Positions 4,870 to 36,773 of a stretch of 64,000 nucleotides of DNA are shown here, piece after piece. The stretch is from Candidatus Buchananbacteria bacterium CG10_big_fil_rev_8_21_14_0_10_33_19 (GTDB lineage Bacteria; Patescibacteriota; Patescibacteriia; 2-01-FULL-39-33): assembly GCA_002773855.1 (NCBI GenBank), contig PEZY01000012.1:297613-361612 (forward strand), in the 5' to 3' direction. The notes beneath the pieces were generated by a model. The model was not told the DNA's origin. It did not search any database and saw nothing but the letters and a program-made list of their open reading frames with translations. Position 1 is the stretch's first letter. Every line of letters starts with the position of its first letter. A program made the position numbers and the translations under genes.

Positions 4870-6309
4870 ATGACTCATGGAAAATTAGCTAAAAATACCT
4901 TCTTTTTTACTATATCATTGGCTATTCAAAAGGCCATATCTTTTTTGTATTTTATTTTAATTGCTAGGGCTGTCAGTGTTGATGATTTAGGTAAATATTC
5001 ATTTGCTTTGAGTTTTGCTACGATTTTTTCTATGTTTTTGGATTTTGGTACGACTCAAATATTGGTTCGTGAAAGTGCCCGTAAAAAAGAAGACTCCCAA
5101 AAGTATTTATCTAATGTTCTGGGTTTTAAATTAATCGTGTCGGTTTTTGTCTATTTGTTAATTGTCACAGCGGTTAATTTAATGGGCTATCCAGAAATTA
5201 CTAAACAATTAGTGTATGTGACTGGCCTAGTCATTGTTCTTGATTCATTTAGTATCGCATTTTACTCAGTGTTAAGGGGTTTACAGAATTTAGTTTTTGA
5301 AAGTCTCGGTGTGATTGTTAATCAAATTATTTTACTTAGTTTGGGTTTTGTAGTTTTACAATTGAACTTAGGTTTAGTGGTTCTGATGAGTGTTTATGTG
5401 GTTGGTACTTTATTTAATTTATTTTATTCCGCTGCTTTGTTAAGTTTTAAATATAAGGTTTTTCCTAAGCCAGATTTTTCTGCTAGTTTAATTTTAAAAA
5501 TTTTAAAAATATCATTGCCGTTTGCGATTGCTGGAGTTTTTGTAAGATTATATTCCTATATGGATGTAATTATATTATCTAAATTAACTAATGATGAGGC
5601 GGTTGGTATATATAGTGTGGCTTATAAAGTAACATTTGCCTTGCAGTTTATTGGTGTGGCTTTTTCGGCGGCTATTTATCCAGCTTTTTGTAATTATTTT
5701 GTTTCTTCAAAGGAGATGTTAGCGAAAAGTTTTACTAAATCAGTTTATTATTTATTAATTATTTCCATGCCACTTTCAGTGGGAATTATTACTATTGCTG
5801 ATAAAGCGATAGTGCCAATTTTTGGTGCTGGTTATAGTGAAGCGATAGTGCCATTGCAAATATTAATGGTGTCATTAGTAATTATATTTTTAGCCTTTCC
5901 GGTCGGTGCTTTACTTAATGCTGCTAACAAGCAAACTGCTAACACCGTAGTGTTGGGCTTCATCGCTTTATTTAATATAGTCGCTAATTTAATATTAGTA
6001 CCAATGTTTAGTTATAATGGAGCAGCTTTAGCCGCACTTTTAAGCTACGTGTTGCTATTCTTTATTGGTTTGATTTTGGTTGGTAGTGTAATTAATTATG
6101 ATAAAAAATATCTTTTAATTTCAGCTGTTAAAATAATAATTAGTTGTGTGGCGATGGGATTTTTAGTGATTTTCTTAAAAGAAAGGTTGCATTTTATGAT
6201 AGTTATTCCGATTGGGGCCTTGGCTTATTTTGTGGTTTTATATGTTACCAAAGGTTTCACTCAAAACGATATATTTCAACTTAGGGATTTGTTATTAAAA
6301 AAAACTTAA
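4870..6309 (+). CDS. polysaccharide biosynthesis protein / Wzx-like flippase (MOP superfamily)
   Basis: About 12-14 TM helices and the N-terminal pattern typical of PST-family flippases. Confidence 0.7.
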   Translation: MTHGKLAKNTFFFTISLAIQKAISFLYFILIARAVSVDDLGKYSFALSFATIFSMFLDFGTTQILVRESARKKEDSQKYLSNVLGFKLIVSVFVYLLIVTAVNLMGYPEITKQLVYVTGLVIVLDSFSIAFYSVLRGLQNLVFESLGVIVNQIILLSLGFVVLQLNLGLVVLMSVYVVGTLFNLFYSAALLSFKYKVFPKPDFSASLILKILKISLPFAIAGVFVRLYSYMDVIILSKLTNDEAVGIYSVAYKVTFALQFIGVAFSAAIYPAFCNYFVSSKEMLAKSFTKSVYYLLIISMPLSVGIITIADKAIVPIFGAGYSEAIVPLQILMVSLVIIFLAFPVGALLNAANKQTANTVVLGFIALFNIVANLILVPMFSYNGAALAALLSYVLLFFIGLILVGSVINYDKKYLLISAVKIIISCVAMGFLVIFLKERLHFMIVIPIGALAYFVVLYVTKGFTQNDIFQLRDLLLKKT

Positions 6310-6310
6310 T

Positions 6311-7420
6311 ATGAAAAAAACTCTACTAGTGACTTATTTTTTCCCACCGCAAATTGGCGGCATTGAAAATTATTATTTAAATCTGTGTGCCAATCTTCCT
6401 AGTGATAAGATAGTAGTGTTAACGCAAGAAAATAGCAACACCGATGAATTTGATAATCAACAGAATTATAAAATTCATCGCACAAATTTTTTTGGTGGTT
6501 TTTTATCGCCACGTTGGCGACATTTAAAAGGTAAAATTAAAAAAATTAAAGAAGAGGAGGGAATTGAACAAATTATTTTTGGTCATTTTCATCCATTGAA
6601 TATCTTGGGGAATTATTTAGATTTGCCATATTATATTTTTGTTCATGGTACTGATGTGAAGCAAGTTAGACACAGTTTATGGCAGAGAATAATTTTTAAG
6701 AAGGTTTATAATGATTGTAAAAAAATTGTTGCCAATAGTAATTATATAGCTAGTGAAGTTGAATCTATAGTTAAAGATAAAAATAAAGTCATAGTTATTC
6801 ATCCGGGTATTAATTATCAAATGTTTTCTCAAAAATCAGATCAGATTGAAAGCAAAAGACGAGAATTAAATTTTAAATCAACTGATTTAATAATATTGAG
6901 TATGGGTAGGTTAGTCAAGCAAAAGAATTTTCAGACAATCATTAAATTGTTCCCAGATTTGTTGATAGATTTTCCTAATTTAAAATATATTATTGCTGGT
7001 GATGGGCCAGAAAGAGACCAGCTAATGAAATTAGTTTACAACTTGGGACTTAAAAATAATATTAAATTTGTGGGACGAGTTGATAATAATGACCATAGTA
7101 AAAAAGTTTATTATCAATTGGCTGATTTATTTGTTTCGGTATCTAGTATTGCCGAAGGTTTTGGGATTACCTATTTAGAGGCTCAAGCTAGCGGATTGCC
7201 AATCGTGGCTTCTAGAATTGGTGGCAGTAGTGAAGCGGTCGCTAGTAACCAAACTGGCATATTAGTAGATCCCAATGACTTGGGTCAAATTAAAGAGGCA
7301 GTTCATGAATTATTGAATAATAATAATAAAAGACAGGAATATGCGGTGGCCGGCCAAAAAAGAGCTTTAGATAAGTTTGATTGGCCTCAACAGGTAAATA
7401 AAATAAAAGAAATTTTATAA
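6311..7420 (+). CDS. glycosyltransferase family 4
   Basis: GT-B fold with the C-terminal EGFG..E..A.G.PV motif. Confidence 0.8.
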   Translation: MKKTLLVTYFFPPQIGGIENYYLNLCANLPSDKIVVLTQENSNTDEFDNQQNYKIHRTNFFGGFLSPRWRHLKGKIKKIKEEEGIEQIIFGHFHPLNILGNYLDLPYYIFVHGTDVKQVRHSLWQRIIFKKVYNDCKKIVANSNYIASEVESIVKDKNKVIVIHPGINYQMFSQKSDQIESKRRELNFKSTDLIILSMGRLVKQKNFQTIIKLFPDLLIDFPNLKYIIAGDGPERDQLMKLVYNLGLKNNIKFVGRVDNNDHSKKVYYQLADLFVSVSSIAEGFGITYLEAQASGLPIVASRIGGSSEAVASNQTGILVDPNDLGQIKEAVHELLNNNNKRQEYAVAGQKRALDKFDWPQQVNKIKEIL

Positions 7421-7427
7421 AATAATT

Positions 7428-8111
7428 ATGTCTAAGATTAGTGTGGTTATACCAGTTTATAATTCTAGTCAAACTATTGGTCAATGCCTGAAGAGTGTGT
7501 TTGCTCAAACTTTTAAAGACTTGGAAGTAATCGCTATTGATGATGGTTCTACAGATTCTTCGTGGTCTGCTTTGGAAAAATGGCAAGATCGAGTTAAGAT
7601 TTATCAGCAGAAGAATATGGGGGCACCAGCAGCCAGAAATTTTGGTTTTACCAAAAGTCATGGTGATTATGTTATTTTTTGTGATGCCGATGTGATTATG
7701 AGAAATGATATGTTACAAAAAATGTATGATAGGTTAGAAGCCAATAAAAACAAGGCTTATGCCTATTCATCATTTAAATTTGGCTGGAAAACTTTTAAAA
7801 TTTGGCCGTTTAACTTGGAGAAATTAAAAAACGGACCATATATACCTACTACTTCTTTAATCCGTCGTAATTATTTTCCGGGCTTTGACGAGTTCTTGAA
7901 AAAATTTCAGGATTGGGATTTATGGCTGACTATCTCTGAAAATGGTGGCGAAGGTATTTGGATAAATGAAGTGTTATTTGTGGCTAAAACTGGGGGCACT
8001 ATGAGTCGATGGCTTCCAAAATTATTTTATAAATTATCTTGGCTTAGTTTTGTAAAAAAATATAATCAAGCTAAAAAAATTATTCAAGATAAACATAACT
8101 TAAAGTCATGA
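7428..8111 (+). CDS. glycosyltransferase family 2
   Basis: VVIPVYN..DDGSTD and DxD motifs. Confidence 0.8.
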   Translation: MSKISVVIPVYNSSQTIGQCLKSVFAQTFKDLEVIAIDDGSTDSSWSALEKWQDRVKIYQQKNMGAPAARNFGFTKSHGDYVIFCDADVIMRNDMLQKMYDRLEANKNKAYAYSSFKFGWKTFKIWPFNLEKLKNGPYIPTTSLIRRNYFPGFDEFLKKFQDWDLWLTISENGGEGIWINEVLFVAKTGGTMSRWLPKLFYKLSWLSFVKKYNQAKKIIQDKHNLKS

Positions 8112-8782
8112 TTAGATTGCAAAAATTTTTAGCTGATGCTGGTGTAGCTTCTCGTCGTAAGGCCGAGGAGTTGATTTTAGCCGGTCGGATTAAAGTTAAT
8201 GGTCAGGTTGTTAAGGAGCTTGGTACTAAAGTTGATGAAGTTGAAGATAAAATTGAATATAATGGAAACATAGTAAGTGTAACAGTTGACAAAGTTTATA
8301 TAGCTTTAAATAAGCCCATTGGTTATATTTCTAGCGCGACTAGTAGTCAGGGTAAATCTGTATTGGATTTAGTGGATGTAGGCTATAGAATTTATCCAGT
8401 TGGTCGATTAGATAAGGATTCCAGTGGCTTAATTTTGTTGACCAATGATGGTGATTTTACTAATAAATTAACCCATGCTAAATATGGCTGTGAGAAGGAA
8501 TATGAAGTCGTAATTGATAAGTCATTTTTAGATATTGATAAAAAAGCTTTTGAGTCTGGAATGAAATTGGCTGGTTACAAACTGCAACCAGTTCAAATAA
8601 CATTAATTAAAGATAATTTAGTTAGGTTGGTTTTAAAAGAGGGGATCAATCGTCAAATTAGGAAAATGATGGGCAAACGAGGCTATAGTGTTATTAGTTT
8701 AAAAAGGATTAGAATTGGCAAATTAAAATTAGCTAATTTAGAATTGGGAAAGTGGAAAAAAATAAATAACCAAGATGTCTAA
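8108..8782 (+). CDS. pseudouridine synthase, RsuA/RluB family (N-terminal S4 domain)
   Basis: S4 motif plus catalytic GRLDKDSSGLILLTNDG. Confidence 0.85.
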   Translation: MIRLQKFLADAGVASRRKAEELILAGRIKVNGQVVKELGTKVDEVEDKIEYNGNIVSVTVDKVYIALNKPIGYISSATSSQGKSVLDLVDVGYRIYPVGRLDKDSSGLILLTNDGDFTNKLTHAKYGCEKEYEVVIDKSFLDIDKKAFESGMKLAGYKLQPVQITLIKDNLVRLVLKEGINRQIRKMMGKRGYSVISLKRIRIGKLKLANLELGKWKKINNQDV

Positions 8783-9566
8783 AAATATAGATTTATCAAT
8801 TATTATTGTTTCTTGGAATACTAAAGATTTATTAGATAAGTGTTTGAGATCAGTGTACGAAAATAATAGCCAACTTAATCTGGAGGTTTTTGTGGTAGAT
8901 AATAATTCTAAAGATCAGACAGTGGATATGGTTAAAAGTAAATATCCACTGGTTAAATTAATTTCTAATAATAAAAACTTAGGTTTTGCAGTCGCCAATA
9001 ATCAAGCTTTAAAAAAAGCGCAAGGTAAGTATATTTTATTGCTTAATCCGGATACTGAAATTTTAGAAAAAGCCTTAGAAAGAGCTATAGAATTTATGGC
9101 TAATCATTTAGATTGTGGGGTAATGGGGGCCAAATTACTAAACACTGATAAAACAGTTCAATTCTCGGTTAGAAAGTTGCCAACTTGGTGGCCAATATTT
9201 TTACTTTTAGTTAAGGCCCCTAAATTTTTTAAAAAGCTTAAAGCGTTGGATGATTATTTATGTTTGAATTTTAATTATAATAAATTACAAACAGTAGAGC
9301 AGGTGATGGGGGCGTTTATGTTGATGACCAAAAAATTAATTGATGAAATTGGTTTGTTAGATGAAAGATTTTTTATCTGGTTTGAAGAAGTTGATTTATG
9401 TCGGAGGGCTTTAGATAGTGGCTACCAAGTGGTTTATAATCCAGATATCGAAGTTCTTCATCATGGTGGCCAGAGTTTTGCTCAAGAGCAGATTATCAAA
9501 AAACAATTTATATTTTTTAAAAGTGCCATACAATATTTTTTAAAGCACGGGTTTTTAAATAAATAA
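8775..9566 (+). CDS. glycosyltransferase family 2
   Basis: SIIIVSWNTKD..VVDNNS..DxD motifs. Confidence 0.8.
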   Translation: MSKNIDLSIIIVSWNTKDLLDKCLRSVYENNSQLNLEVFVVDNNSKDQTVDMVKSKYPLVKLISNNKNLGFAVANNQALKKAQGKYILLLNPDTEILEKALERAIEFMANHLDCGVMGAKLLNTDKTVQFSVRKLPTWWPIFLLLVKAPKFFKKLKALDDYLCLNFNYNKLQTVEQVMGAFMLMTKKLIDEIGLLDERFFIWFEEVDLCRRALDSGYQVVYNPDIEVLHHGGQSFAQEQIIKKQFIFFKSAIQYFLKHGFLNK

Positions 9567-9569
9567 CCT

Positions 9570-10886
9570 ATGATACTATTTATATTATTTATAATTTTGG
9601 GAATTGCTTTTTCTTTGTGTTATATTTGGGGTAAAGAAAAATTTTCACCAGCTAATTTAATGTTAGCTGTTTGGTTAATATCTATTGGAGTAGCTCAATT
9701 ACGACTTAGTCCTCATGAAAATAAATGGACAGTTGATTTTTGGTTGGTTTTATTTTTATTTTTGGTATTGTTCTATTTATCTTTTTTGATTGTAAATAAT
9801 AAGATTGGTAAAAAAATTACCGATAATAAAAAAAATATTTTGATTGATAAAAAGATATTATTTTTTGTGGCTATAGGTTTAACCTCAGCCAGCTTGTTGA
9901 GTAATCTTTATATATTTTGGCAATTTAAAACCATGCCAATATTTTCATCTAGTCCGGATAGGATGAGATTTATTATTAACAAAAATATTTTTGGTTTATG
10001 GGAATATTTAGCCCTATTGCCTAGACTTTATATTCCGTTATTATTTTTTTATTTGTTATCAATTAAGAGTATATCTAGGAAATATAAATTATTTATTTGG
10101 CTAAATATTATTTTGGGTTTTCTATTATTATTTTTATACGCTTCTAGGTTGGTAATAATTTTGCCAATTTTGTTAACATACTTTGTCTATATTTATTTGA
10201 AAAAAAATAATATTACTTTTAAGAAAATAATTATTTCTTCAATATTGGTGTTACTAGTGGTTGGCTTTATATCTGTGGCTATTCCAGCTTTTCGTAATTA
10301 TATAACTTATAAAGATTATTATACTGACAGCCTAGATTATACGCCATTTACCTATTTGGTTAATTTATCCGGTATTGCTGTGCCGGCTGAATTACAATGG
10401 ATTATTCCATTATATATTATTCCTAGTTTTAATTTGCAGGCCATGCTACAAGCGACCACTTATTATAATACTAGTGTTAACAATTTTTATCAGGGTGCTT
10501 ATTATCTCACAGTTTTTAATCCACTTCTAAAAATATTACATTTGCCATTATCTAATGTGATAATACCCTGGGAGCCAATGTTTTTGTCTTGGTGGATAAC
10601 GGCGACATTTTTATTTTCGGCTTGGGCGGATTTTGGTTACTGGGGAATTATTTTTATAGCTATTTTATGGGGTATTATTTTAGCTGTAGCCTATCAATAT
10701 GCATCAAAAAAACCGACTTATTTGTCGATTATGTTAATGTCTTATTTTAGTTTTGTGGTGATAATGAGTATTTACACTGATTATTTGATGAGAGCCGAGT
10801 TTTATATAGATGTGTTTTTTATTTTTGTGACTGGCTATATTTTTTTGAAATTTAAAAATCAGACTACTCAAAAGATTGATCAATAA
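9570..10886 (+). CDS. polytopic membrane protein, possibly an O-antigen polymerase/ligase-like protein
   Basis: More than 10 predicted TM helices; sits inside the glycosyltransferase cluster. Confidence 0.4.
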   Translation: MILFILFIILGIAFSLCYIWGKEKFSPANLMLAVWLISIGVAQLRLSPHENKWTVDFWLVLFLFLVLFYLSFLIVNNKIGKKITDNKKNILIDKKILFFVAIGLTSASLLSNLYIFWQFKTMPIFSSSPDRMRFIINKNIFGLWEYLALLPRLYIPLLFFYLLSIKSISRKYKLFIWLNIILGFLLLFLYASRLVIILPILLTYFVYIYLKKNNITFKKIIISSILVLLVVGFISVAIPAFRNYITYKDYYTDSLDYTPFTYLVNLSGIAVPAELQWIIPLYIIPSFNLQAMLQATTYYNTSVNNFYQGAYYLTVFNPLLKILHLPLSNVIIPWEPMFLSWWITATFLFSAWADFGYWGIIFIAILWGIILAVAYQYASKKPTYLSIMLMSYFSFVVIMSIYTDYLMRAEFYIDVFFIFVTGYIFLKFKNQTTQKIDQ

Positions 10887-28765: not shown

Positions 28766-29059
28766 TTATTTTTTGCGTTTAGCTTTTTTTTCATTCTTTT
28801 TTTCTTTGAAATGAACTGCTAGTTTGCTCATTCCTTCGATTAGGGGTGGTAAATAACTGGCGGTAGTTTCAACTTTCTTTTTGACAATCTCTAGAATTTG
28901 ATCAATTAGATCTAATTTTTTTCTAGCACTAACTGTCATTTTTTTAATATCGCGTAAAATTAAAGCGATATAAATACAGCCCCAACCAATAGCCAAGCCA
29001 ATAAATATAACAATAAAAGCTATAGATAGGTTAAGAAAGTCTTGTGATGTTTGAAGCAT
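28766..29059 (-). CDS. hypothetical membrane protein (N-terminal TM followed by a coiled coil)
   Basis: ORF with a Lys-rich tail. Confidence 0.4.
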   Translation of the reverse strand: MLQTSQDFLNLSIAFIVIFIGLAIGWGCIYIALILRDIKKMTVSARKKLDLIDQILEIVKKKVETTASYLPPLIEGMSKLAVHFKEKKNEKKAKRKK

Positions 29060-29061
29060 GG

Positions 29062-29082
29062 GAGTGTTATTAGTTTATAAAG
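29062..29082. repeat. Left inverted-repeat doublet (GTTTATAAAGTTTATAAAGT) flanking the four-helix-bundle gene
   Basis: Direct read; matches the reverse complement of the 29464-29491 doublet. Confidence 0.6.
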
Positions 29083-29112
29083 TTTATAAAGTCCTTAAAG
29101 TAAGAATAATTT

Positions 29113-29457
29113 TTATAAGCTCTTGATAAGACCAGATAGTATTTTAGATATTTCTAGCGATAAATTATAATATTTTTCAAAATTATCTTGTGATATATAT
29201 TTTAATTCTTTAGCTATATATAACATCGATCTAACTTCAGCGCATGATCCCTTGGCAATAAATAAAAAATGTTTAAATTCATTGTCACCTTTTCTTTCAA
29301 AGCCCTCAGATATGTTATTCATTATTGACACGGAAGCACGTTGAATTTGATCTTTGAATCCAAAATCACGAGAATTATCAAACTGTCTGTAAATATTTAT
29401 TGTCAAAATTTTTGCTTTTTTCCAGGCAATAATATCTTCAAATTTATCTATTTTCAT
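29113..29457 (-). CDS. four-helix-bundle protein (family usually encoded in 23S rRNA intervening sequences)
   Basis: FEDIIAWKKA...GSCAEV family motifs; 114 aa. Confidence 0.7.
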   Translation of the reverse strand: MKIDKFEDIIAWKKAKILTINIYRQFDNSRDFGFKDQIQRASVSIMNNISEGFERKGDNEFKHFLFIAKGSCAEVRSMLYIAKELKYISQDNFEKYYNLSLEISKILSGLIKSL

Positions 29458-29463
29458 AAAATA

Positions 29464-29491
29464 ACTTTATAGACATTTGACTTTATAGACT
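29464..29491. repeat. Right inverted-repeat doublet (CTTTATAGAC x2) flanking the four-helix-bundle gene
   Basis: aaCTTTATAGACatttgaCTTTATAGAC. Confidence 0.6.
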
Positions 29492-29496
29492 TTCGA

Positions 29497-31860
29497 CTAC
29501 CTTATGGTTATATTATATTCCTTTTTTAATTTATCGACAACTTTATCATGAACTTTTTGGGCTTCTGTTAGCTCTAATGTTTTATTATCATCCCGATAAT
29601 TAATTCTGATAGCCAAAGCTTTTTTGCCGGTGGGAATTTTTTCACCTTGATAAACCGATAAAAATAAAACTTGTTTTATTAAGTCATTAAAATCTTTAAC
29701 AGTATTTACAACGTCGCTGTACAAAATATCTTCTTCAATTTCCATCGAAATATCTAAATCAATCCCAGGAAATTTAGCAATTGGTTTGTAAGTTGAGCTG
29801 TCTTTAATGAATTCTGCTAACTTGGAAAAATCAATTTCAGCTAGAGCGACATTCTTTTTGATACCAAATAATTGTAAATTTTCTTTGTTTATGATACCAA
29901 TTGTTCCAATGGATTTTTCGTTGATTATAATTTCGGCTGATTCATTGCTGCTCCAGTAGAGATTAGTCTTTTTAATGGGTTGGGTGGTAAAATCTTCAAT
30001 ATTCAATTTTTGCAGGACTACTGCCAGAGCTCCTTTAACATCAAAAAACGCTTTATCTTTTGAATCCTCAGCCATGGCAATACATAAATCTGTTTTTTCA
30101 GTTGGTAGTTCTTTAGGATTATTGATGTATGATTTGCTGAGTTCAAATATTTTTAAATCACTCACCATTCTTTCATTTTCTTTAATAGATTGTAATAGGC
30201 CCGGTACCAATGAGACGCGCATATATTCAAAATCACCAGATAATGGGTTGGCTATTTTTACGTGATCATTTACATCTAAACCAGAGCTTTTAATTAATTT
30301 TTCTGAAATAAATGAATAATTAATATTTTCGCTGTAGCCTAAGCCCACTAAAGTGTCTTTGATTTTATCCTCTTGTTGAAATATTTTTTTCTGATCGTTA
30401 CCTGTTGGTAAATCGCCAGTCATTAACTTGGCTGGTAATTTATGATAACCGTAAACTCTAGCAATCTCTTCGATTAAATCATGTGGCCCCTCGATGTCAT
30501 TGTTTCTAAAATATGGCACCTCGACTTTAATGTCGCCAGTACCAGATACTTTGAAACCTAATTTTTCTAAAATAGATTTTACCTCAGCTGGTTTAATCTC
30601 TATGCCCAATATTCTTTTAATATCATCGCTTGGTAAATTAACAGTTTTAATTTTAAATGAATAACTAGACTCATCAATTAATTTTGAAGCCACTTTACCG
30701 TTAGCTAATTCAACTACCAATTCTATGGCTCTTAAAATAGCTGGTGTAGTGTTTTCTGGTGCCAAGCCCTTCTCAAATAAATTAGAGCTATCAGAATGTA
30801 AATTTAGAGCTCTGGCTGTCTTTCTAATTGATAGTTGATCAAAATTGGCTGCTTCTAAAACAATAGTCTTAGTCTCGTCGGTCGCGGCTGAAAGTTCGCC
30901 ACCCATAATACCGGCTACAGCTACAGGATCTTTTTTGTCGGCAATAACTAGCGAGTCTTCAATTAATTCATAATTTTTACCATCCAAAGCTAAAAGCTTT
31001 TCACCTTTTTTGGCACCCCTAATTATTATTTCTTGACCAGCTAATTTATTATAATCAAAAACATGCATTGGTTGGCCAAATTCTAATAAAATATAATTAG
31101 TAATATCGACTAAATTGTTAATTGGTCTAAGTCCAGCCGATAGTAATCTTTGTTGCATCCAGAGCGGTGAACTTTCAACTTTAATGTCAGTCATAACAAT
31201 CGCTTGGTAACGTGAACAGAGTTTTGATTCTTTAACACTAACATCTAATTTTAATTCTTTGTTGATTTTAAGATTTGGCTTTGATTCTTCGTAAGTAAAT
31301 TTAACATCCAAAATAGCCGAAGCTTCACGAGCTAAACCAATAATATTCATAGCGTCTGGACGATTGGAAGTGACTTCAATATCAAAAATATAATCATCTA
31401 AGTTCATCACTTTCTCTAGTGGTAGTCCAACTTTGGTGTAGGCTGGTAAAATGTAAATCCCCGTGTGATCTTCACCAATGCCTAATTCTTTTTGAGAGCA
31501 CATCATGCCAGCACTTTCGACGCCTCGTAGACTAGCCTTTTTAACTTCAAAGCCAGATACTTCCCCGCCCACTGTTACTACTGGTACTTTTTGACCGACT
31601 GCAATATTAGGAGCACCACAAACAATTTGGAGTGGTTCTTTGGCACCCACATCAACTTGGCAAACCTGTAATTTGTCAGCAGAAGCATGCTTCTCAATCG
31701 AAATGATTTCACCAATGACTACTTTTTTAAAAGTTGGTGTGAGTTCATGAATATAATCGATAGTGGGGCCACTGATAGTTAATTTTTTGGCAAAATCACG
31801 AGCACTATCTTTAGTAGTGACGTATTCTTTTAGCCAATTGTAGGAAAAATTTAGGTTCAT
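29497..31860 (-). CDS. pheT: phenylalanine--tRNA ligase beta subunit
   Basis: Start trimmed to MNLNFSYNWLKEY, the conserved PheT N-terminus; B3/4, B5 and FDX-ACB domains. Confidence 0.9.
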   Translation of the reverse strand: MNLNFSYNWLKEYVTTKDSARDFAKKLTISGPTIDYIHELTPTFKKVVIGEIISIEKHASADKLQVCQVDVGAKEPLQIVCGAPNIAVGQKVPVVTVGGEVSGFEVKKASLRGVESAGMMCSQKELGIGEDHTGIYILPAYTKVGLPLEKVMNLDDYIFDIEVTSNRPDAMNIIGLAREASAILDVKFTYEESKPNLKINKELKLDVSVKESKLCSRYQAIVMTDIKVESSPLWMQQRLLSAGLRPINNLVDITNYILLEFGQPMHVFDYNKLAGQEIIIRGAKKGEKLLALDGKNYELIEDSLVIADKKDPVAVAGIMGGELSAATDETKTIVLEAANFDQLSIRKTARALNLHSDSSNLFEKGLAPENTTPAILRAIELVVELANGKVASKLIDESSYSFKIKTVNLPSDDIKRILGIEIKPAEVKSILEKLGFKVSGTGDIKVEVPYFRNNDIEGPHDLIEEIARVYGYHKLPAKLMTGDLPTGNDQKKIFQQEDKIKDTLVGLGYSENINYSFISEKLIKSSGLDVNDHVKIANPLSGDFEYMRVSLVPGLLQSIKENERMVSDLKIFELSKSYINNPKELPTEKTDLCIAMAEDSKDKAFFDVKGALAVVLQKLNIEDFTTQPIKKTNLYWSSNESAEIIINEKSIGTIGIINKENLQLFGIKKNVALAEIDFSKLAEFIKDSSTYKPIAKFPGIDLDISMEIEEDILYSDVVNTVKDFNDLIKQVLFLSVYQGEKIPTGKKALAIRINYRDDNKTLELTEAQKVHDKVVDKLKKEYNITIR

Positions 31861-31864
31861 AAAA

Positions 31865-32965
31865 TTAAAACTGATTAATAACTCGTAAATCATTTTTGTA
31901 TAACAATCTAATATCATCGATATTCAAGCCCGATTTCATCATATAACATCTTTCTACGCCCCAACCAAAGGCAAAGCCACTATAAACCTTAGGATCAATA
32001 CCACCCGCTTTTAAGACATTAGGGTGGACCATACCGGCGCCAGCTAGTTCTAGCCAGCCTTCTTTGCAAAGCTTGCAACCCTTGCCATGACAAACACCAC
32101 AAGAGATATCTACCTCAAAACTGGGTTCGGTAAATTGAAAGTGGTGTGGTCGTAGTCTAATTTCTCTATCTTCGCCAAAAAATCTTTTAACAAAATATTC
32201 TACCGTACCCTTGAGGTGGCTTATGTTTATGTCTTTATCAATAACCAAGCCTTCAAATTGATGAAACATTGGTGAATGAGAAGCATCGATTTGACGACGA
32301 TAAGTTTTGGAAATATTAGTCATACGAATTGGCAACTCCCCTTTTTCCATTTCCCGGACTTGGCCAGATGAAGTGTGCGGGGTTAATATCCGCTGACCTA
32401 ATTTTTTATTAATTGGTTCGCGATCAATAAAAAAAGTTTCCCATTCATCACGGGCTGGATGGCCAGCTGGCATATTTAGAGCTTCAAAGCCATAATAATC
32501 CCACTCGACTTCTGGATAGCGCTCTCTTTGAAAACCAATATCTTCGAAAATACCAGATATTTCTCTGATGGCTTGCGAGACCATATGAAGATGACCAACT
32601 GGTTGTTCGGTACCAGGTAAAGTTGGGTCAAAAGCAGTGTCAGAATTATTTTTATTTCCTAAATTAGATTTAATAGTCTCTAATTTATTAGTTAAAAATT
32701 GTTTTACTTCGTTGGCTAACTTGCCGACTGCTGGCATTTCTTCTTTGGGCACACTTTTCATTTCTTTCATTAGTAGTGTTAGAACCCCACTCTTTCTGCT
32801 AAGATATTTATTTTCCAAAGATTCTAAATCAACCAAAGATTTAATTTTTTCTGCTTCATCGTTGAATTCTTTTTTTAGTGCTTCTAATTTTGCCTTCATT
32901 TTTTTGAGACTAAATAATTTAGTAATGTAGCTATTATAGTCCCAAAATTGACTTTTAGTCAACAT
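31865..32965 (-). CDS. pheS: phenylalanine--tRNA ligase alpha subunit
   Basis: Class II core with GHPARD...FEGLV motifs. Confidence 0.95.
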   Translation of the reverse strand: MLTKSQFWDYNSYITKLFSLKKMKAKLEALKKEFNDEAEKIKSLVDLESLENKYLSRKSGVLTLLMKEMKSVPKEEMPAVGKLANEVKQFLTNKLETIKSNLGNKNNSDTAFDPTLPGTEQPVGHLHMVSQAIREISGIFEDIGFQRERYPEVEWDYYGFEALNMPAGHPARDEWETFFIDREPINKKLGQRILTPHTSSGQVREMEKGELPIRMTNISKTYRRQIDASHSPMFHQFEGLVIDKDINISHLKGTVEYFVKRFFGEDREIRLRPHHFQFTEPSFEVDISCGVCHGKGCKLCKEGWLELAGAGMVHPNVLKAGGIDPKVYSGFAFGWGVERCYMMKSGLNIDDIRLLYKNDLRVINQF

Positions 32966-34324: not shown

Positions 34325-34385
34325 AGCATTTCTCCTTATTCGGTTGCAATTGATCTAGTCCGAGAAATTCGGGCTAGTAAAAGAG

Positions 34386-34568
34386 CTACTGGGGATATTC
34401 CATTTCAGGGAAATGGAGGTCGAAACAGTCTGGACAATAGCCATGGCTAATGTCTCTCCTACCTTCGACGGACTGCTCTGTCCATGAGCCGTCAGTTTGA
34501 CGAACCTTTTTACATACGCAACATTGAACTACCATTGATGTACCTCCATAGTTGAATTTTCCCCACAA
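34386..34568 (-). CDS. small zinc-ribbon-like protein (CCVC...CPDC), C-terminal DCFDL motif
   Basis: ORF in the GC-rich island. Confidence 0.35.
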   Translation of the reverse strand: MWGKFNYGGTSMVVQCCVCKKVRQTDGSWTEQSVEGRRDISHGYCPDCFDLHFPEMEYPQ

Positions 34569-34648
34569 CGATACGAAGCAAGTTTGAACAAAATGGTCGG
34601 TCTCTTATAATATATATTTATTTGTACCGGTTTTGTCAAGTTTGCTTG

Positions 34649-34670
34649 TTAGTAGACCTACTAGTAAATA
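34649..34670. repeat. Inverted-repeat arm L (ttagtagacctactagtaaata)
   Basis: Partner arm at 34795-34819; about 17/20 of the aligned positions match the reverse complement. Confidence 0.5.
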
Positions 34671-34794
34671 TTTTTTGTTTATAAACTTTTATAATTTTGA
34701 GATAAATTTTTCAAATAATCTTTGCGGTTTAGAGGTTCTAAATTAAAAAGATTTTTGGAAATTTAGTCGAAATTTATAAGTTTTAACAAAAAGG

Positions 34795-34819
34795 TATTTA
34801 CTAGTGGGTCTACACCTAG
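34795..34819. repeat. Inverted-repeat arm R (tatttactagtgggtctacacctag)
   Basis: Reverse complement of arm L; the 120 bp between them is AT-rich. Confidence 0.5.
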
Positions 34820-35006
34820 CATGTCCCTCCTTCGTATCGGCGTGGAGAAAATTCTCCAATCGCCAGTTCATTAGAACAACTAATAGAGGATGACTGATGA
34901 AAAATAGATTTCATAAGGCCCTATTATGGTTGTGACCCGAAACATATAATTCGTAATTTGTTCCCTCCCCTATATGATTGTTCTAAAATAAATTTAATGT
35001 ACTCTT

Positions 35007-35120
35007 CAAAACTATCCCGTCAAATTGATTTCAATTCCCTCATAATTAACATTTTCTGGAATATTCTTTTTTAACAAGATAGTTTTGAGGAGAAATCTTT
35101 ATGGTTATTATGATTTCTCC
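35007..35120 (-). ncRNA. Structured repeat element, copy A (long-range helix plus terminal GC hairpin); strand tentative
   Basis: 5' arm caaaactatc pairs with 3' arm gatagttttg; hairpin ggagaaatc/gatttctcc. Confidence 0.4.
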
Positions 35121-35289
35121 AGATTTTGCTGGCGAGTATTATTTTCAAGTGGCATCCTCTACTGGTTGAAAAATAGTAGCCCTTTTCTCTAAATACGCAG
35201 ATCAGGCCACCAACTACTCGATAAGTGTGTAAAATTTTACCGTAACGAACTTCTAATAACTCTGATTGTGACATCTCACTATCCTCCAT
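35071..35289 (-). CDS. questionable small ORF overlapping copy A of the structured element
   Basis: From the ORF track; its C-terminus is encoded by the hairpin region. Confidence 0.15.
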   Translation of the reverse strand: MEDSEMSQSELLEVRYGKILHTYRVVGGLICVFREKGYYFSTSRGCHLKIILASKIWRNHNNHKDFSSKLSC

Positions 35290-35300
35290 GGTTTTTTACC

Positions 35301-35420
35301 AGAACTATCCAGTCAATCGATTTTATTCCCTCCTTTGTATTTTTTATAAATCAAGAAATGGAACCCTCATATTGACAAGATAGTTTTGGTGAGGAGCACG
35401 AGTTCAATGTCGTGCTCCTC
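35301..35420 (-). ncRNA. Structured repeat element, copy B
   Basis: Arms agaactatccagtcaat / attgacaagatagttttgg; hairpin gaggagcacga/tcgtgctcctc. Confidence 0.4.
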
Positions 35421-35427
35421 TGTATCT

Positions 35428-35631
35428 TTACCTCCACGGTTGGTGGTAAAGACATGTTCCGTGGTGTTCGCGCATCATAAACACCACGGAAAGGTCCATT
35501 GACAATTTTCTGGCTACCTTAACAGCCCCAACAAAACTGTCAAATACATAGATAAAGTCTATGCAATCGCAGGTGTAACCAAATACTGTATACATAAATT
35601 TCTCCTCTCGTTGTTGAAATGTACTACCCAA
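35428..35631 (-). CDS. small Cys-containing ORF (likely start MYTVFGYTCDCIDF...), preceded by copy C of the structured element and a GAGGAG Shine-Dalgarno
   Basis: SD gagaggag 8 nt upstream of the internal Met; shares the GYxCDCxDF motif with ORF 34386-34568. Confidence 0.3.
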   Translation of the reverse strand: MGSTFQQREEKFMYTVFGYTCDCIDFIYVFDSFVGAVKVARKLSMDLSVVFMMREHHGTCLYHQPWR

Positions 35632-35733
35632 AACTATCTAGCCAATCCCGTAAATCCTCTAAATTGATTTAAGTAGAATCAGCAGATTAGCGAGATGGTT
35701 TTGGGAGGGGCTGGACATCACAGGTCCAGCCCC
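35629..35733 (-). ncRNA. Structured repeat element, copy C
   Basis: 21-nt arms cccaaaactatctagccaatc / gattagcgagatggttttggg; hairpin ggggctggac/gtccagcccc. Confidence 0.4.
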
Positions 35734-36736
35734 AGAAAGGTTGAGTGCGCATGGACAACACACCCAAGAATGAAGATTGTCGGATCAAAGATCCTTATCA
35801 GGGCGACGCATCTAGATAACTAGCTGCCGCCCTTATAAGGAGCTTCGAATCTTTTTAACAAGAGATTAAAAGATTCACTCCCTTAAAACAAAAGAACCCT
35901 GGTTGGAGAGAGAGGGTTCCTTTGCGGTGACCACTATAATAAATATACTGGTGGTTTTTTCTCTCTCCTTATTGTGCTAGCATTATATCATATAACAGTA
36001 ATCTTGTCAAGTATATTGCTGGTTTTTTGCTAAAAATTAGCTAAAATTAGCTAATATTATAAACTTGTCAATATGATAAAATTGTGATGTAATATAGTTT
36101 TATGAAATTTAGTTACTTAGTATTTCTTATATTCGTTATTCAATGAGTTATATATCTTATCTCTTTCTATCTGTTACTTTTGTACCGCCAAAAGTAACCA
36201 AAAGCTCGCAAACGTAAAAAATCATGGCAATTTTATATCAGCTCGCTAGAGCCAATTAAACAAAACAGCGACCTAATAATTGTCTCTAACGCTCGCCTTG
36301 ATATAAAATTGACACAATATTTTTTAATGTTTGCATTTTTTATAATAAATATATAAATAAATTCGAGCATATGAAAAATTAAGTAGAAAAACAATAATAA
36401 ATTAAGCGTTTGTGAGTTGTCTACGAACAAATTTTTCGCATGTCTGAGCCATTTTCGACCTATCTAAATAAATAGAAAATGGTGAGTTCGGAAAATAGCG
36501 AAGATTTATTATAGTTTTTCCTTAATTTTATCATCGCTCGTAGTTTTTGTGTTACTTTTTGCTATCAAAAAGTGACGAGAAAAGTTATTAAAAAATGAGA
36601 TTGCTTCTTACCTCGCAATGACGTTTGTAGATGGAGTGTAAAGTAATAGAAATAAAGAAAATAATCTCTCTACCTCCCCCACCCGTATAGTTGCGGTCGA
36701 TATGACATGATAAAATAAAATAAAATTATAGATAAA

Positions 36737-36765
36737 AAAGACTAGTCATATGACTAGTCTTTTAA
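36737..36765. terminator. Perfect palindromic hairpin; bidirectional terminator downstream of the helicase-nuclease gene
   Basis: aaaagactagtcatatgactagtctttt. Confidence 0.65.
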
Positions 36766-36773
36766 AAGCATAA

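Follow-up and report, generated by a model that had tools for sequence, protein, structure and literature searches.

A free-standing gene of the rRNA intervening sequence type between inverted tandem repeat arrays at the pheT stop codon of a Candidatus Buchananbacteria genome: a candidate selfish cassette

Bacterial ribosomal RNA (rRNA) genes can contain intervening sequences (IVSs), some of them with a conserved open reading frame (ORF); both have been on record since about 1990-1993, yet neither their origin nor their function is agreed upon. The ORF-less IVSs of Salmonella, Yersinia, Campylobacter and Proteus are extended stem-loops of 90-180 nt in helices 25 and 45. Two other groups of small elements are of interest here: the REPIN-RAYT system, in which doublets of repetitive extragenic palindromes (REPs) form hairpins and flank a Y1 transposase gene, and miniature inverted-repeat transposable elements (MITEs) together with TA-targeting, non-autonomous elements of the IS630/Tc1 type, which are short, have terminal inverted repeats (TIRs) and occur with gene-less derivatives. 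Among the ORF-containing IVSs, that in helix 45 of Coxiella has two to three tandem GACAGAT heptamers just before the ORF of the IVS protein (IVP), and RNase III cuts at the first repeat; the hypothesis that IVSs are mobile elements, with an ORF that helps them to move, has been discussed in the same context and was never tested (PMC4990558). IVP ORFs are also known in 16S and 23S insertions of the candidate phyla radiation (CPR) (PMC11270868). Avd, the homologous protein of diversity-generating retroelements (DGRs), forms a pentamer that binds RNA in a ribonucleoprotein with the reverse transcriptase (RT), in which a long-range RNA duplex, avd:Sp, flanks the DGR template (bioRxiv 10.1101/2023.10.23.563531). 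Here we analyse a 64-kb stretch of DNA (the window) from Candidatus Buchananbacteria bacterium CG10_big_fil_rev_8_21_14_0_10_33_19 (contig PEZY01000012.1, positions 297,613 to 361,612), in which an IVP gene encoding 114 amino acids (aa) follows pheT and is enclosed by inverted arrays of short tandem repeats. Our best explanation, held with moderate confidence, is that the locus is a selfish cassette of the rRNA-IVS type, ~425 bp long, with a promoterless IVP gene between inverted arrays of 7-9-nt AAAGT-type units and with RNase III-type processing of its transcript. Neither free-standing IVP cassettes with inverted tandem arrays nor their gene-less derivatives nor placement at stop codons are described in the literature searched.

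An earlier note on this DNA had recognised a gene for a four-helix-bundle protein of the rRNA-IVS type, and profile searches bear this out. The 114-aa product matches PF05635 (23S_rRNA_IVP) with 119 bits (cut-off 33.8, E=1.4e-34) over profile positions 1-106 of 106, and TIGR02436 ("four helix bundle protein") with 114 bits against a cut-off of 24. Pentameric crystal structures are similar to it in sequence (PDB 2GSC, E=1.5e-10; 2RLD, E=2e-6), and the protein is predicted to be an Avd-like four-helix bundle that assembles as a pentamer. The conserved motif of the family is GxxRxxxSxxxNxxE (PMC3936711, after Lin et al. 2006); its RxxxSxxxNxxE core is readable in QRASVSIMNNISEG, as R-ASV-S-IMN-N-IS-E within QIQRASVSIMNNISEGF, with Q in place of the leading G. 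More than 7995 homologues were found, the best non-identical ones being 76-78% identical and spread across phyla, and the locus is an ordinary member of a very large family whose common architecture appears to be under-described. As to a phage or plasmid vehicle, no relative was present in viral contigs or in the phage collection, and plasmid records with IVP relatives numbered only 28, all below 60% identity. Models of defence systems in PADLOC had no match at the locus.

The repeats around the gene are concentrated at this one place. GTYTATAAAGT has four exact matches in the 64 kb, all flanking the IVP gene, against a mean of 0.26 in shuffled windows, and none of 100 shuffles reached four; within the window, the search for further copies that had been suggested returned this gene alone. 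When one mismatch is allowed the count is unremarkable (7 found, 6.5 expected), so that the signal is a local cluster of exact copies. Further clusters of at least three AAAGT/ACTTT cores were found nowhere else in the window (0.16 expected). Copies of GTTTATAAAGT lie at 29073-29083 and 29082-29092 on the plus strand, and exact copies of GTCTATAAAGT at 29490-29480 and 29474-29464 on the minus strand. The inverted doublets described earlier therefore exist, with the right block where it had been placed (29464-29474 and 29480-29490) but the left block 11 nt away (29073-29092, not 29062-29082), and the arrays are slightly longer than those doublets. Read in the orientation of the gene, the 5' arm is TCGAAAGTC-TATAAAGTC-AAATGTC-TATAAAGTT, and the spacer between the pheT stop codon and the gene (39 nt) consists of these units followed by ATTTT, after which comes the ATG. 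The 3' arm is ACTTTAAGG-ACTTTATAA-ACTTTATAA-AC, the reverse complement of the 5' arm units. The arms contain an inverted repeat (I5) of 15 nt with 93% complementarity, and the cassette has terminal inverted repeats of the sort that characterise TIR transposons and MITEs.

Homologues of PheT supplied a graded series of relatives in which the occupied site could be compared with empty ones. Two of them, the closest relative L086 (PheT 86% identical) and L089 (69%), have neither the ORF nor the repeats: pheT ends in TAA, and 17-18 nt later the same small membrane-protein gene starts (...AGA TAA TTCTTAACTCACAATCCC ATG in L086, ...AGG TAA AATTAATTTGTATTCCT ATG in L089). The left junction in the window reads ...AGG TAG TCGAAAGTC..., where the G of the TAG stop opens the first repeat unit and the C-terminus of PheT is unchanged. 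Given the two empty sites, the unchanged end of PheT and the surviving spacer, the sequence comparison indicates that the ~425-bp unit entered the pheS-pheT-tm97 operon as a whole, precisely at the stop codon of pheT, without damage to the gene on either side. This supports the small mobile cassette that the earlier note had offered as one of two possibilities. The same operon has received other elements. In L087 (a 78% relative), the 4-nt spacer between pheS and pheT has given way to another IVP gene (29% identical) with ATTAGTT/AACTAAT arrays, both host genes being intact again, while L209, L210 and L211 carry gene-less inverted-array hairpins or partial arrays in the same two spacers of the pheST operon, with units TAGCT, TTGAAA, TAAGTT and CGTAATT and with each array starting directly after the stop codon. 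Judging from these alignments, at least three independent insertions have hit the stop-codon end of the spacer between pheT and the next gene, where ~18 positions were possible. Compared with L086, the junctions in the window fit a TA/.../TA duplication (slashes mark element ends), which is one comparison only; TGA/GT upstream stops and the junctions of L211 and L209 reveal no consistent target duplication.

Further observations concern the pheST operon in other genomes. L088 (5860-6303 and 37-465; PheT 78% identical) has a gap of 445 nt between pheT and the next gene. The gap holds an unrelated small membrane-protein ORF and, after it, a single ACTTTATAAAC unit whose place is the right junction of the window's cassette (…AACTTTATAAAC TA ACTCACTCCC ATG), which may be a decayed element; a gene for a Y1 (IS200/IS605-type) transposase lies ~1 kb upstream of pheS in this locus. 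In two Sphingobacteriales genomes, L073 (25-1917, 2282-2635) and L077 (2272-4665, 5001-5360), an IVP cassette whose GTCGTAAGTC-type arrays have a 'flipped' arrangement follows directly on pheT, and the colonisation of pheST in two unrelated phyla could be a coincidence or an operon preference. The native 3' end of pheT, …ATAAG[A/G]TAA, itself resembles an array unit.

The same architecture recurs throughout the family. A scan of species-representative genomes yielded 79 loci with proteins 54-77% identical to that of the window, from Patescibacteria, Bacteroidota, Proteobacteria, Marinimicrobia, Ignavibacteria, Bdellovibrionota and other phyla; adding the locus of the window itself (L001) and the second gene copies that five of the loci contain gave ~80 cassettes for analysis. 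Almost all of them have arrays of short units upstream and the reverse complement of these downstream. The median local score of the upstream flank against the reverse complement of the downstream flank was 15.25 (80 cassettes), whereas the controls gave 7.5 for the direct comparison, 9.45 for flanks of different loci and 7.4 for shuffled flanks. In cassettes of the closer clade, whose proteins share 62% identity or more with that of the window, units are spaced at 7, 8 or 9 nt, with medians of 4 units in the left arm and 3 in the right. The unit changes from locus to locus (AAAGTC, AAAGTT, GTCGTAAGTC, GGCGTAAGG, TTAGGGAG, GAAAGTG), and the two arms within a locus stay complementary. Ends often read TA/GTC...GAC/TA. 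The inner stem has no fixed register to the start codon on the 5' side, and on the 3' side the array often starts at the stop codon (12/37).

Arms and proteins diverge together. AAAGT-type arms go with 65-77% identical proteins in at least five phyla, and across the cassettes the similarity of arm 5-mers correlates with protein identity (Mantel rho 0.52; maximum of 0.19 in 500 permutations). Divergent IVP genes in one genome have dissimilar arms (cosine 0.08-0.23), whereas a pair 89% identical reaches 0.54. Since arm similarity tracks the protein even within one genome, the arms belong to the element and not to the host genome. Cultured isolates have the same design, namely GGTTCAAGG/CCTTGAACC arrays around the IVP gene in Riemerella anatipestifer and GGGAAAAG/CTTTTCCC arrays in a Nostoc plasmid, which rules out an artefact of metagenome assembly. 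L048 and L054 are two copies, 97% identical, that lie 7.5 kb apart at different sites in one Bacteroidales genome, both arranged as X-X'-gene-X-X'; this pair is a recent duplication outside the window. The Bacteroidales subfamily to which they belong (L048 4850-5000 and 5350-5490; L054; L055) has the order array, inverse array, gene, array, inverse array, with GAAAGTG units. Its doubled arrays permit two local hairpins, one on either side of the ORF, or one long stem around it, and may thus act as a conformational switch.

The cassettes are also strongly biased in position. In 76 of 80 cassettes the IVP gene points the same way as the closest upstream ORF of 100 aa or more, which is a median of ~50 nt away; for the downstream neighbour this holds in 57 of 74. 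No more than 10 nt separate the upstream stop codon from the first repeat core at 45 of 71 loci (median 6 nt), and the stop is TAA in 34, TAG in 22 and TGA in 15. The cassette, in other words, sits in sense at the extreme 3' end of a host gene. It appears to have no promoter of its own, and the terminator scan detected no terminator-like site in the arms. The sole promoter-like site near the window's cassette, TTGTCG-17-TATAAT (29540-29512, minus strand; sigma-70-like, 10/12), ends ~10 nt before it, within conserved 3' coding sequence of pheT. As this site is kept in the empty-site relatives, it was rejected as the cassette's promoter; if functional, it would be an internal promoter of the operon, outside the element. 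Because the cassette appears promoterless, we read the orientation bias as dependence on read-through transcription.

Arrays without a gene are common. Scanning metagenomes for pairs of GTCTATAAAGT-type units no more than 8 nt apart yielded 119 stretches. Only 6 of 112 arrays adjoined an IVP gene, and 58 of the 112 had an inverted partner within 1.5 kb; the loops of these 58 were at most 30 nt in 31 cases, 31-120 nt in 17 and gene-sized (301-600 nt) in 5. Extra arrays with the cognate core were also found at 16 of ~75 genome loci, amounting to ~20 per 552 kb, or ~15-fold more than the ~1.3 expected from shuffles of the window.

Several of the arrays fall inside 23S rRNA genes, which were located by probe matching in the loci and by Rfam on single loci. 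The clearest case is L017 of Magasanikbacteria (large-subunit rRNA at 6415-10274 by Rfam), where an insertion of ~100 nt with the structure (AUAAAGUCC)x4 - loop - (GACUUUU)x4 replaces the hairpin loop at model positions 1210-1218, that is, helix 45; the same locus holds a free-standing IVP cassette with AAAGTC units at 5001-5351, 3.4 kb away. In L101, an array hairpin of 127 nt replaces the loop of an rRNA hairpin at model position ~285. By probe spacing, L147 and L154 appear to be at this same rRNA site and L142 at the helix-45 site. With AAAGTC-type arrays present in 23S loops, the repeats flanking the window's gene are of the same kind as those of bona fide rRNA IVSs. The gene itself behaves differently: an IVP gene inside an rRNA gene was found at 0 of 79 genome loci (probe matches, with Rfam on L017 only), so that the free-standing state is the norm and the earlier view of the family as typically residing in 23S rRNA does not hold for these loci. 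No rRNA was found in the 64-kb window, and the cassette stands between pheT and the gene for a 97-aa protein instead of in a 16S or 23S helix, the location of an IVS in the strict sense.

Two other kinds of array were noticed. AAAGT-type hairpins in L110 (5229-5420), L116 (4408-4610), L121 (1268-1470) and L139 enclose a GC-rich, non-coding cargo of ~85-100 nt with the conserved sequence …ATGGACCC[T/C]TCGCGGGGCGCTTTAT…GTCCGAAGGACACC[T/C]GTGACC…; this cargo recurs across metagenomes, a human-gut contig included, and is possibly either a nested element or a small, structured RNA. In the metagenome contigs L111 (2915-3030), L114, L146, L178 and L103 (3100-3480), the 9-mer GTCTATAAA or mixed AAAGTC units form long, pure tandem runs; they reach up to ~250-350 nt with no inverted partner nearby, which suggests that arrays can expand by slippage.

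The arms can pair as RNA. Both the minimum-free-energy and the centroid fold of 29055-29500 (minus strand) pair the two flanks, a pairing that the earlier note had considered possible. The duplex between the window's arms has -16.8 kcal/mol in the sense and -21.1 kcal/mol in the antisense orientation, and the sense duplex with flanks of 70/80 nt reaches z ~ -3.1 against shuffles; by folds and duplex energy, then, the complementary ends are predicted to form a stem as in an IVS. For the family, the median duplex energy is -31 kcal/mol, compared with -15.7 kcal/mol for shuffles, and the median z is -3.9, with values below -2 at 59 of 78 loci. Together with the flank complementarity across the family and the same arrays in 23S loops, these energies support an IVS-like stem enclosing the gene, the other possibility raised before, and the evidence supports regarding the stem and the mobile cassette as two sides of one thing. 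Coordinates of the features are collected in Table 1.

Table 1. Features of the cassette and its surroundings, in window coordinates
Feature	Position	Strand	Remarks
pheS	31865-32965	minus	host operon
pheT	29497-31917	minus	host operon; PheT C-terminus …EYNITIR
Upstream host operon, pheS and pheT	29497-32965	minus	co-oriented with the cassette; presumed source of transcription
pheT stop codon, left junction	29497-29499	minus	TAG here, TAA in the empty-site relatives
5' arm, four tandem units	29458-29496	minus	immediately follows the stop codon of pheT; missing in the empty-site relatives L086 and L089
IVP cargo gene, 114 aa, intact	29113-29457	minus	matches to the PF05635 and TIGR02436 profiles
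3' arm, three tandem 9-nt units and AC	29073-29101	minus	within the 53-nt spacer 29060-29112
Remnant of the old spacer, TAATAACACTCCC, ~13 nt, right junction	29060-29072	minus	from the spacer comparison with L086 and L088
tm97, gene for a predicted membrane protein of 97 aa	28766-29059	minus	after the cassette

On the minus strand the gene order is pheS, pheT, the 114-aa ORF, the 97-aa membrane protein gene, a 111-aa ORF, lysS and serS. The window is AT-rich (32.5% GC). Elsewhere in it, the ~2.4 kb at 34325-36773 have no ORF longer than ~70 aa, contain patches of 41-50% GC at 34.0-34.6 kb and 35.2-35.95 kb, and are assigned an odd 55-residue product over 672 nt in the public gene calls; Rfam gave nothing there but a chance-level miRNA match. 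A weak, non-significant tblastn similarity to the IVP gene lies at 34975-35115 on the minus strand (E=0.08).

If the preferred explanation is right, the cassette would be transcribed by read-through from pheST, and in the transcript the purine-rich 5' arm would pair with the 3' arm in an imperfect stem of ~25-30 bp that encloses the ORF. By analogy with rRNA IVSs, this stem may be a substrate of RNase III, whose cut would release the cassette RNA, so that the host transcript would come to no harm from the insertion. Since the arms are cognate to the protein, the putatively pentameric, Avd-like product probably binds its own repeats, much as Avd binds RNA. Such binding could regulate processing or translation, or could help to propagate the cassette and its gene-less hairpin derivatives.

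A number of observations weigh against this explanation. The fold of the whole 446 nt is no more stable than shuffles (z = 0.14), and is thus uninformative alone. The window's stem is weak and AT-rich, and its single arm mismatch is a C·A on the sense strand. Across the family, arm mismatches have no excess of sense G:U pairs (57 sense-compatible and 83 antisense-compatible, with 216 transversions), and the antisense duplex is slightly more stable at 44 loci compared with 33 (p=0.06). Without a sense preference, selection at the RNA level is not demonstrable from mismatches or duplex stability, and arm complementarity could equally be a constraint at the DNA level. The imperfection of the arms is in itself no argument against an RNA function, since those of the L017 rRNA insertion are equally imperfect (9-nt against 8-nt units). 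The 64-kb window holds one cassette and no gene-less hairpin, and no RNase III signature gene was found in it. With a single cassette, and no relative closer than 78% found anywhere, recent mobility of the window's copy is unsupported. Finally, no mobility enzyme was found, and no transposase is recurrently near the cassettes.

The strand symmetry of arm complementarity, with no G:U bias, is what would be expected if the arrays were the TIRs of a non-autonomous, MITE-like transposon, with its transposase elsewhere, the gene as a passenger and the RNA stem as a by-product. Such a DNA-level element would also account for the many short gene-less derivatives, for the TA/GTC...GAC/TA ends (the window's junctions being compatible with TA duplication) and for two near-identical copies at different sites in one genome. 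But co-orientation of 95% is unexpected for a transposon with symmetric ends unless expression of the passenger matters, and the arms co-diverge with the 'passenger' protein, even inside one genome; from these two facts together, the gene fits poorly as a passive MITE passenger. Upstream stops of the type TGA/GT... speak against a general TA duplication, and genuine rRNA IVSs built on these repeats work at the level of RNA. Only one Y1 transposase was encountered (L088); it has no homologues in the window or in 1.65 Mb of loci, and an association with Y1 transposases is rejected at this search sensitivity. We regard the DNA-level explanation as rather unlikely.

According to another view, the origin had two steps: hairpins spread on their own, and the IVP gene is a separate homing entity that enters hairpin loops, so that the arms belong to the target. 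Gene-less hairpins do greatly outnumber gene-bearing ones for this unit type, rRNA insertions occupy hairpin loops, relatives have gene-less hairpins in the same pheST spacers, and L088 retains a lone ACTTTATAAAC unit at the same junction. The empty sites of L086 and L089, however, lack the arms as well as the gene; moreover, arm sequence follows the protein subfamily and not the host genome, and AAAGT-type arms accompany 65-77% identical proteins in at least five phyla. A two-step origin is improbable on this evidence.

It is harder still to see the repeats as purely regulatory, that is, as operators, RNA-binding sites, or promoter (-10-like TATAAA) or terminator pieces serving this gene at an immobile locus, even though a unit has TATAAA 8 nt before the ATG, the ~3-5 units per arm are near the pentamer stoichiometry of the family, and the homologue Avd binds RNA (bioRxiv 10.1101/2023.10.23.563531). 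An immobile locus does not agree with the insertion polymorphism or the repeated, independent colonisation of the same spacers; GC-rich units of other subfamilies, such as GGCGTAAGG and GGGAAAAG, do not resemble promoters; the arms contain nothing like a terminator; and identical repeats lie inside rRNA. Regulation and mobility are, besides, not mutually exclusive.

The family's kinship with Avd raises the question of a DGR remnant, an avd gene left after loss of the RT and the template repeat (TR). The 114-aa protein is weakly similar to the bAvd profile PF22296 (E=1.9e-4) and to the PHROG 'Avd protein of DGR' (3e-6), and avd genes do lie directly downstream of a co-oriented target gene. The bAvd score, however, is 22.3 bits, under the 40-bit cut-off; no open frame in the 64 kb contains an RT motif, the called genes up to 10 kb away include no RT family, and no long direct repeat resembling a TR and variable repeat (VR) was found in the 800 bp around the gene; pheT does not belong to the variable-protein genes; and the empty sites reveal a compact insertion of ~425 bp. 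With neither RT nor TR, this reading was rejected as very improbable. Chance, meaning AT-rich low-complexity sequence without significance, can be dismissed despite the 32% GC of the genome and the chance-level count with one mismatch allowed, as it is refuted by four exact copies at one gene where 0.26 are expected, by the flank complementarity scores and duplex energies, and by ~80 loci that share the architecture with varied and even GC-rich units, and the common, scattered motifs without stem potential that would have undone the original proposal are not what is found here.

Returning to the selfish cassette, a wider interpretation may be offered, tentatively and as the less likely outcome: IVP/Avd-like proteins and their cognate arms would constitute a phylum-spanning, previously unrecognised class of mobile element, with the protein as a trans-acting, repeat-recognising factor, comparable to REPIN-RAYT without a known transposase fold and possibly RNA-mediated. 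The spread or upkeep of the gene-bearing cassettes, and of the gene-less hairpins that far outnumber them, would then be due to the protein, with rRNA hairpin loops and the position immediately 3' of the stop codons of transcribed genes as targets. If true, this would explain what rRNA IVSs are and what their ORF is for. As this locus and its relatives show, the same type of element lives mostly outside rRNA; it comes and goes at exact positions in operons, right behind stop codons, has arms that co-evolve with its protein, and has abundant gene-less derivatives, some of which are rRNA IVS hairpins. In the compact genomes of the CPR, such arrays also contribute structured repeats that lack annotation. 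The 23S_rRNA_IVP family has been listed near arrays in two CRISPR-association screens (PMC3936711, PMC10910872), and we conjecture that the flanking tandem arrays may explain this recurrent "CRISPR-associated" label.

Compared with the systems introduced above, the cassette resembles MITEs and IS630/Tc1-like elements in its short size, TIRs and gene-less derivatives and in junctions that would fit a TA duplication, but it is strongly orientation-biased, has all three stop types before its arms and has no linked transposase. With Avd (PDB 4DWL) it shares a homologous pentameric, basic four-helix-bundle fold, as predicted for its protein, and a gene directly downstream of a co-oriented gene; unlike a DGR, it has no RT, no TR/VR and a sub-cut-off bAvd score, and flanking tandem arrays are not a feature of DGRs. 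The likeness to REPIN-RAYT lies in one gene between inverted cognate repeats, in many dispersed gene-less hairpins in intergenic, transcribed 3' regions, and in a repeat type that co-varies with the protein subfamily; the differences are that the protein is a 114-aa helical bundle of PF05635 without HUH/Y1 motifs, hence no Y1 transposase, and that the arms are tandem arrays of 7-9 nt instead of a single palindrome. ORF-less rRNA IVSs correspond to the gene-less array hairpins in 23S loops and spacers, whereas the window's element carries a gene. The closest counterparts are the ORF-containing 23S rRNA IVSs of Leptospira, Coxiella burnetii (helix 45), Xanthomonas and Brucella and the CPR insertions. 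Their protein belongs to the same PF05635 family; their ORF likewise stands between inverted flanks, with short tandem repeats just upstream and a length of ~430 nt, in sense within the host transcript; and their distribution is sporadic and looks horizontally transferred. They differ in that the cassette lies at a stop codon in an mRNA operon and not in an rRNA helix, and in that an rRNA IVS fragments a structural RNA, which is not at issue for the cassette, where RNase III processing is inferred.

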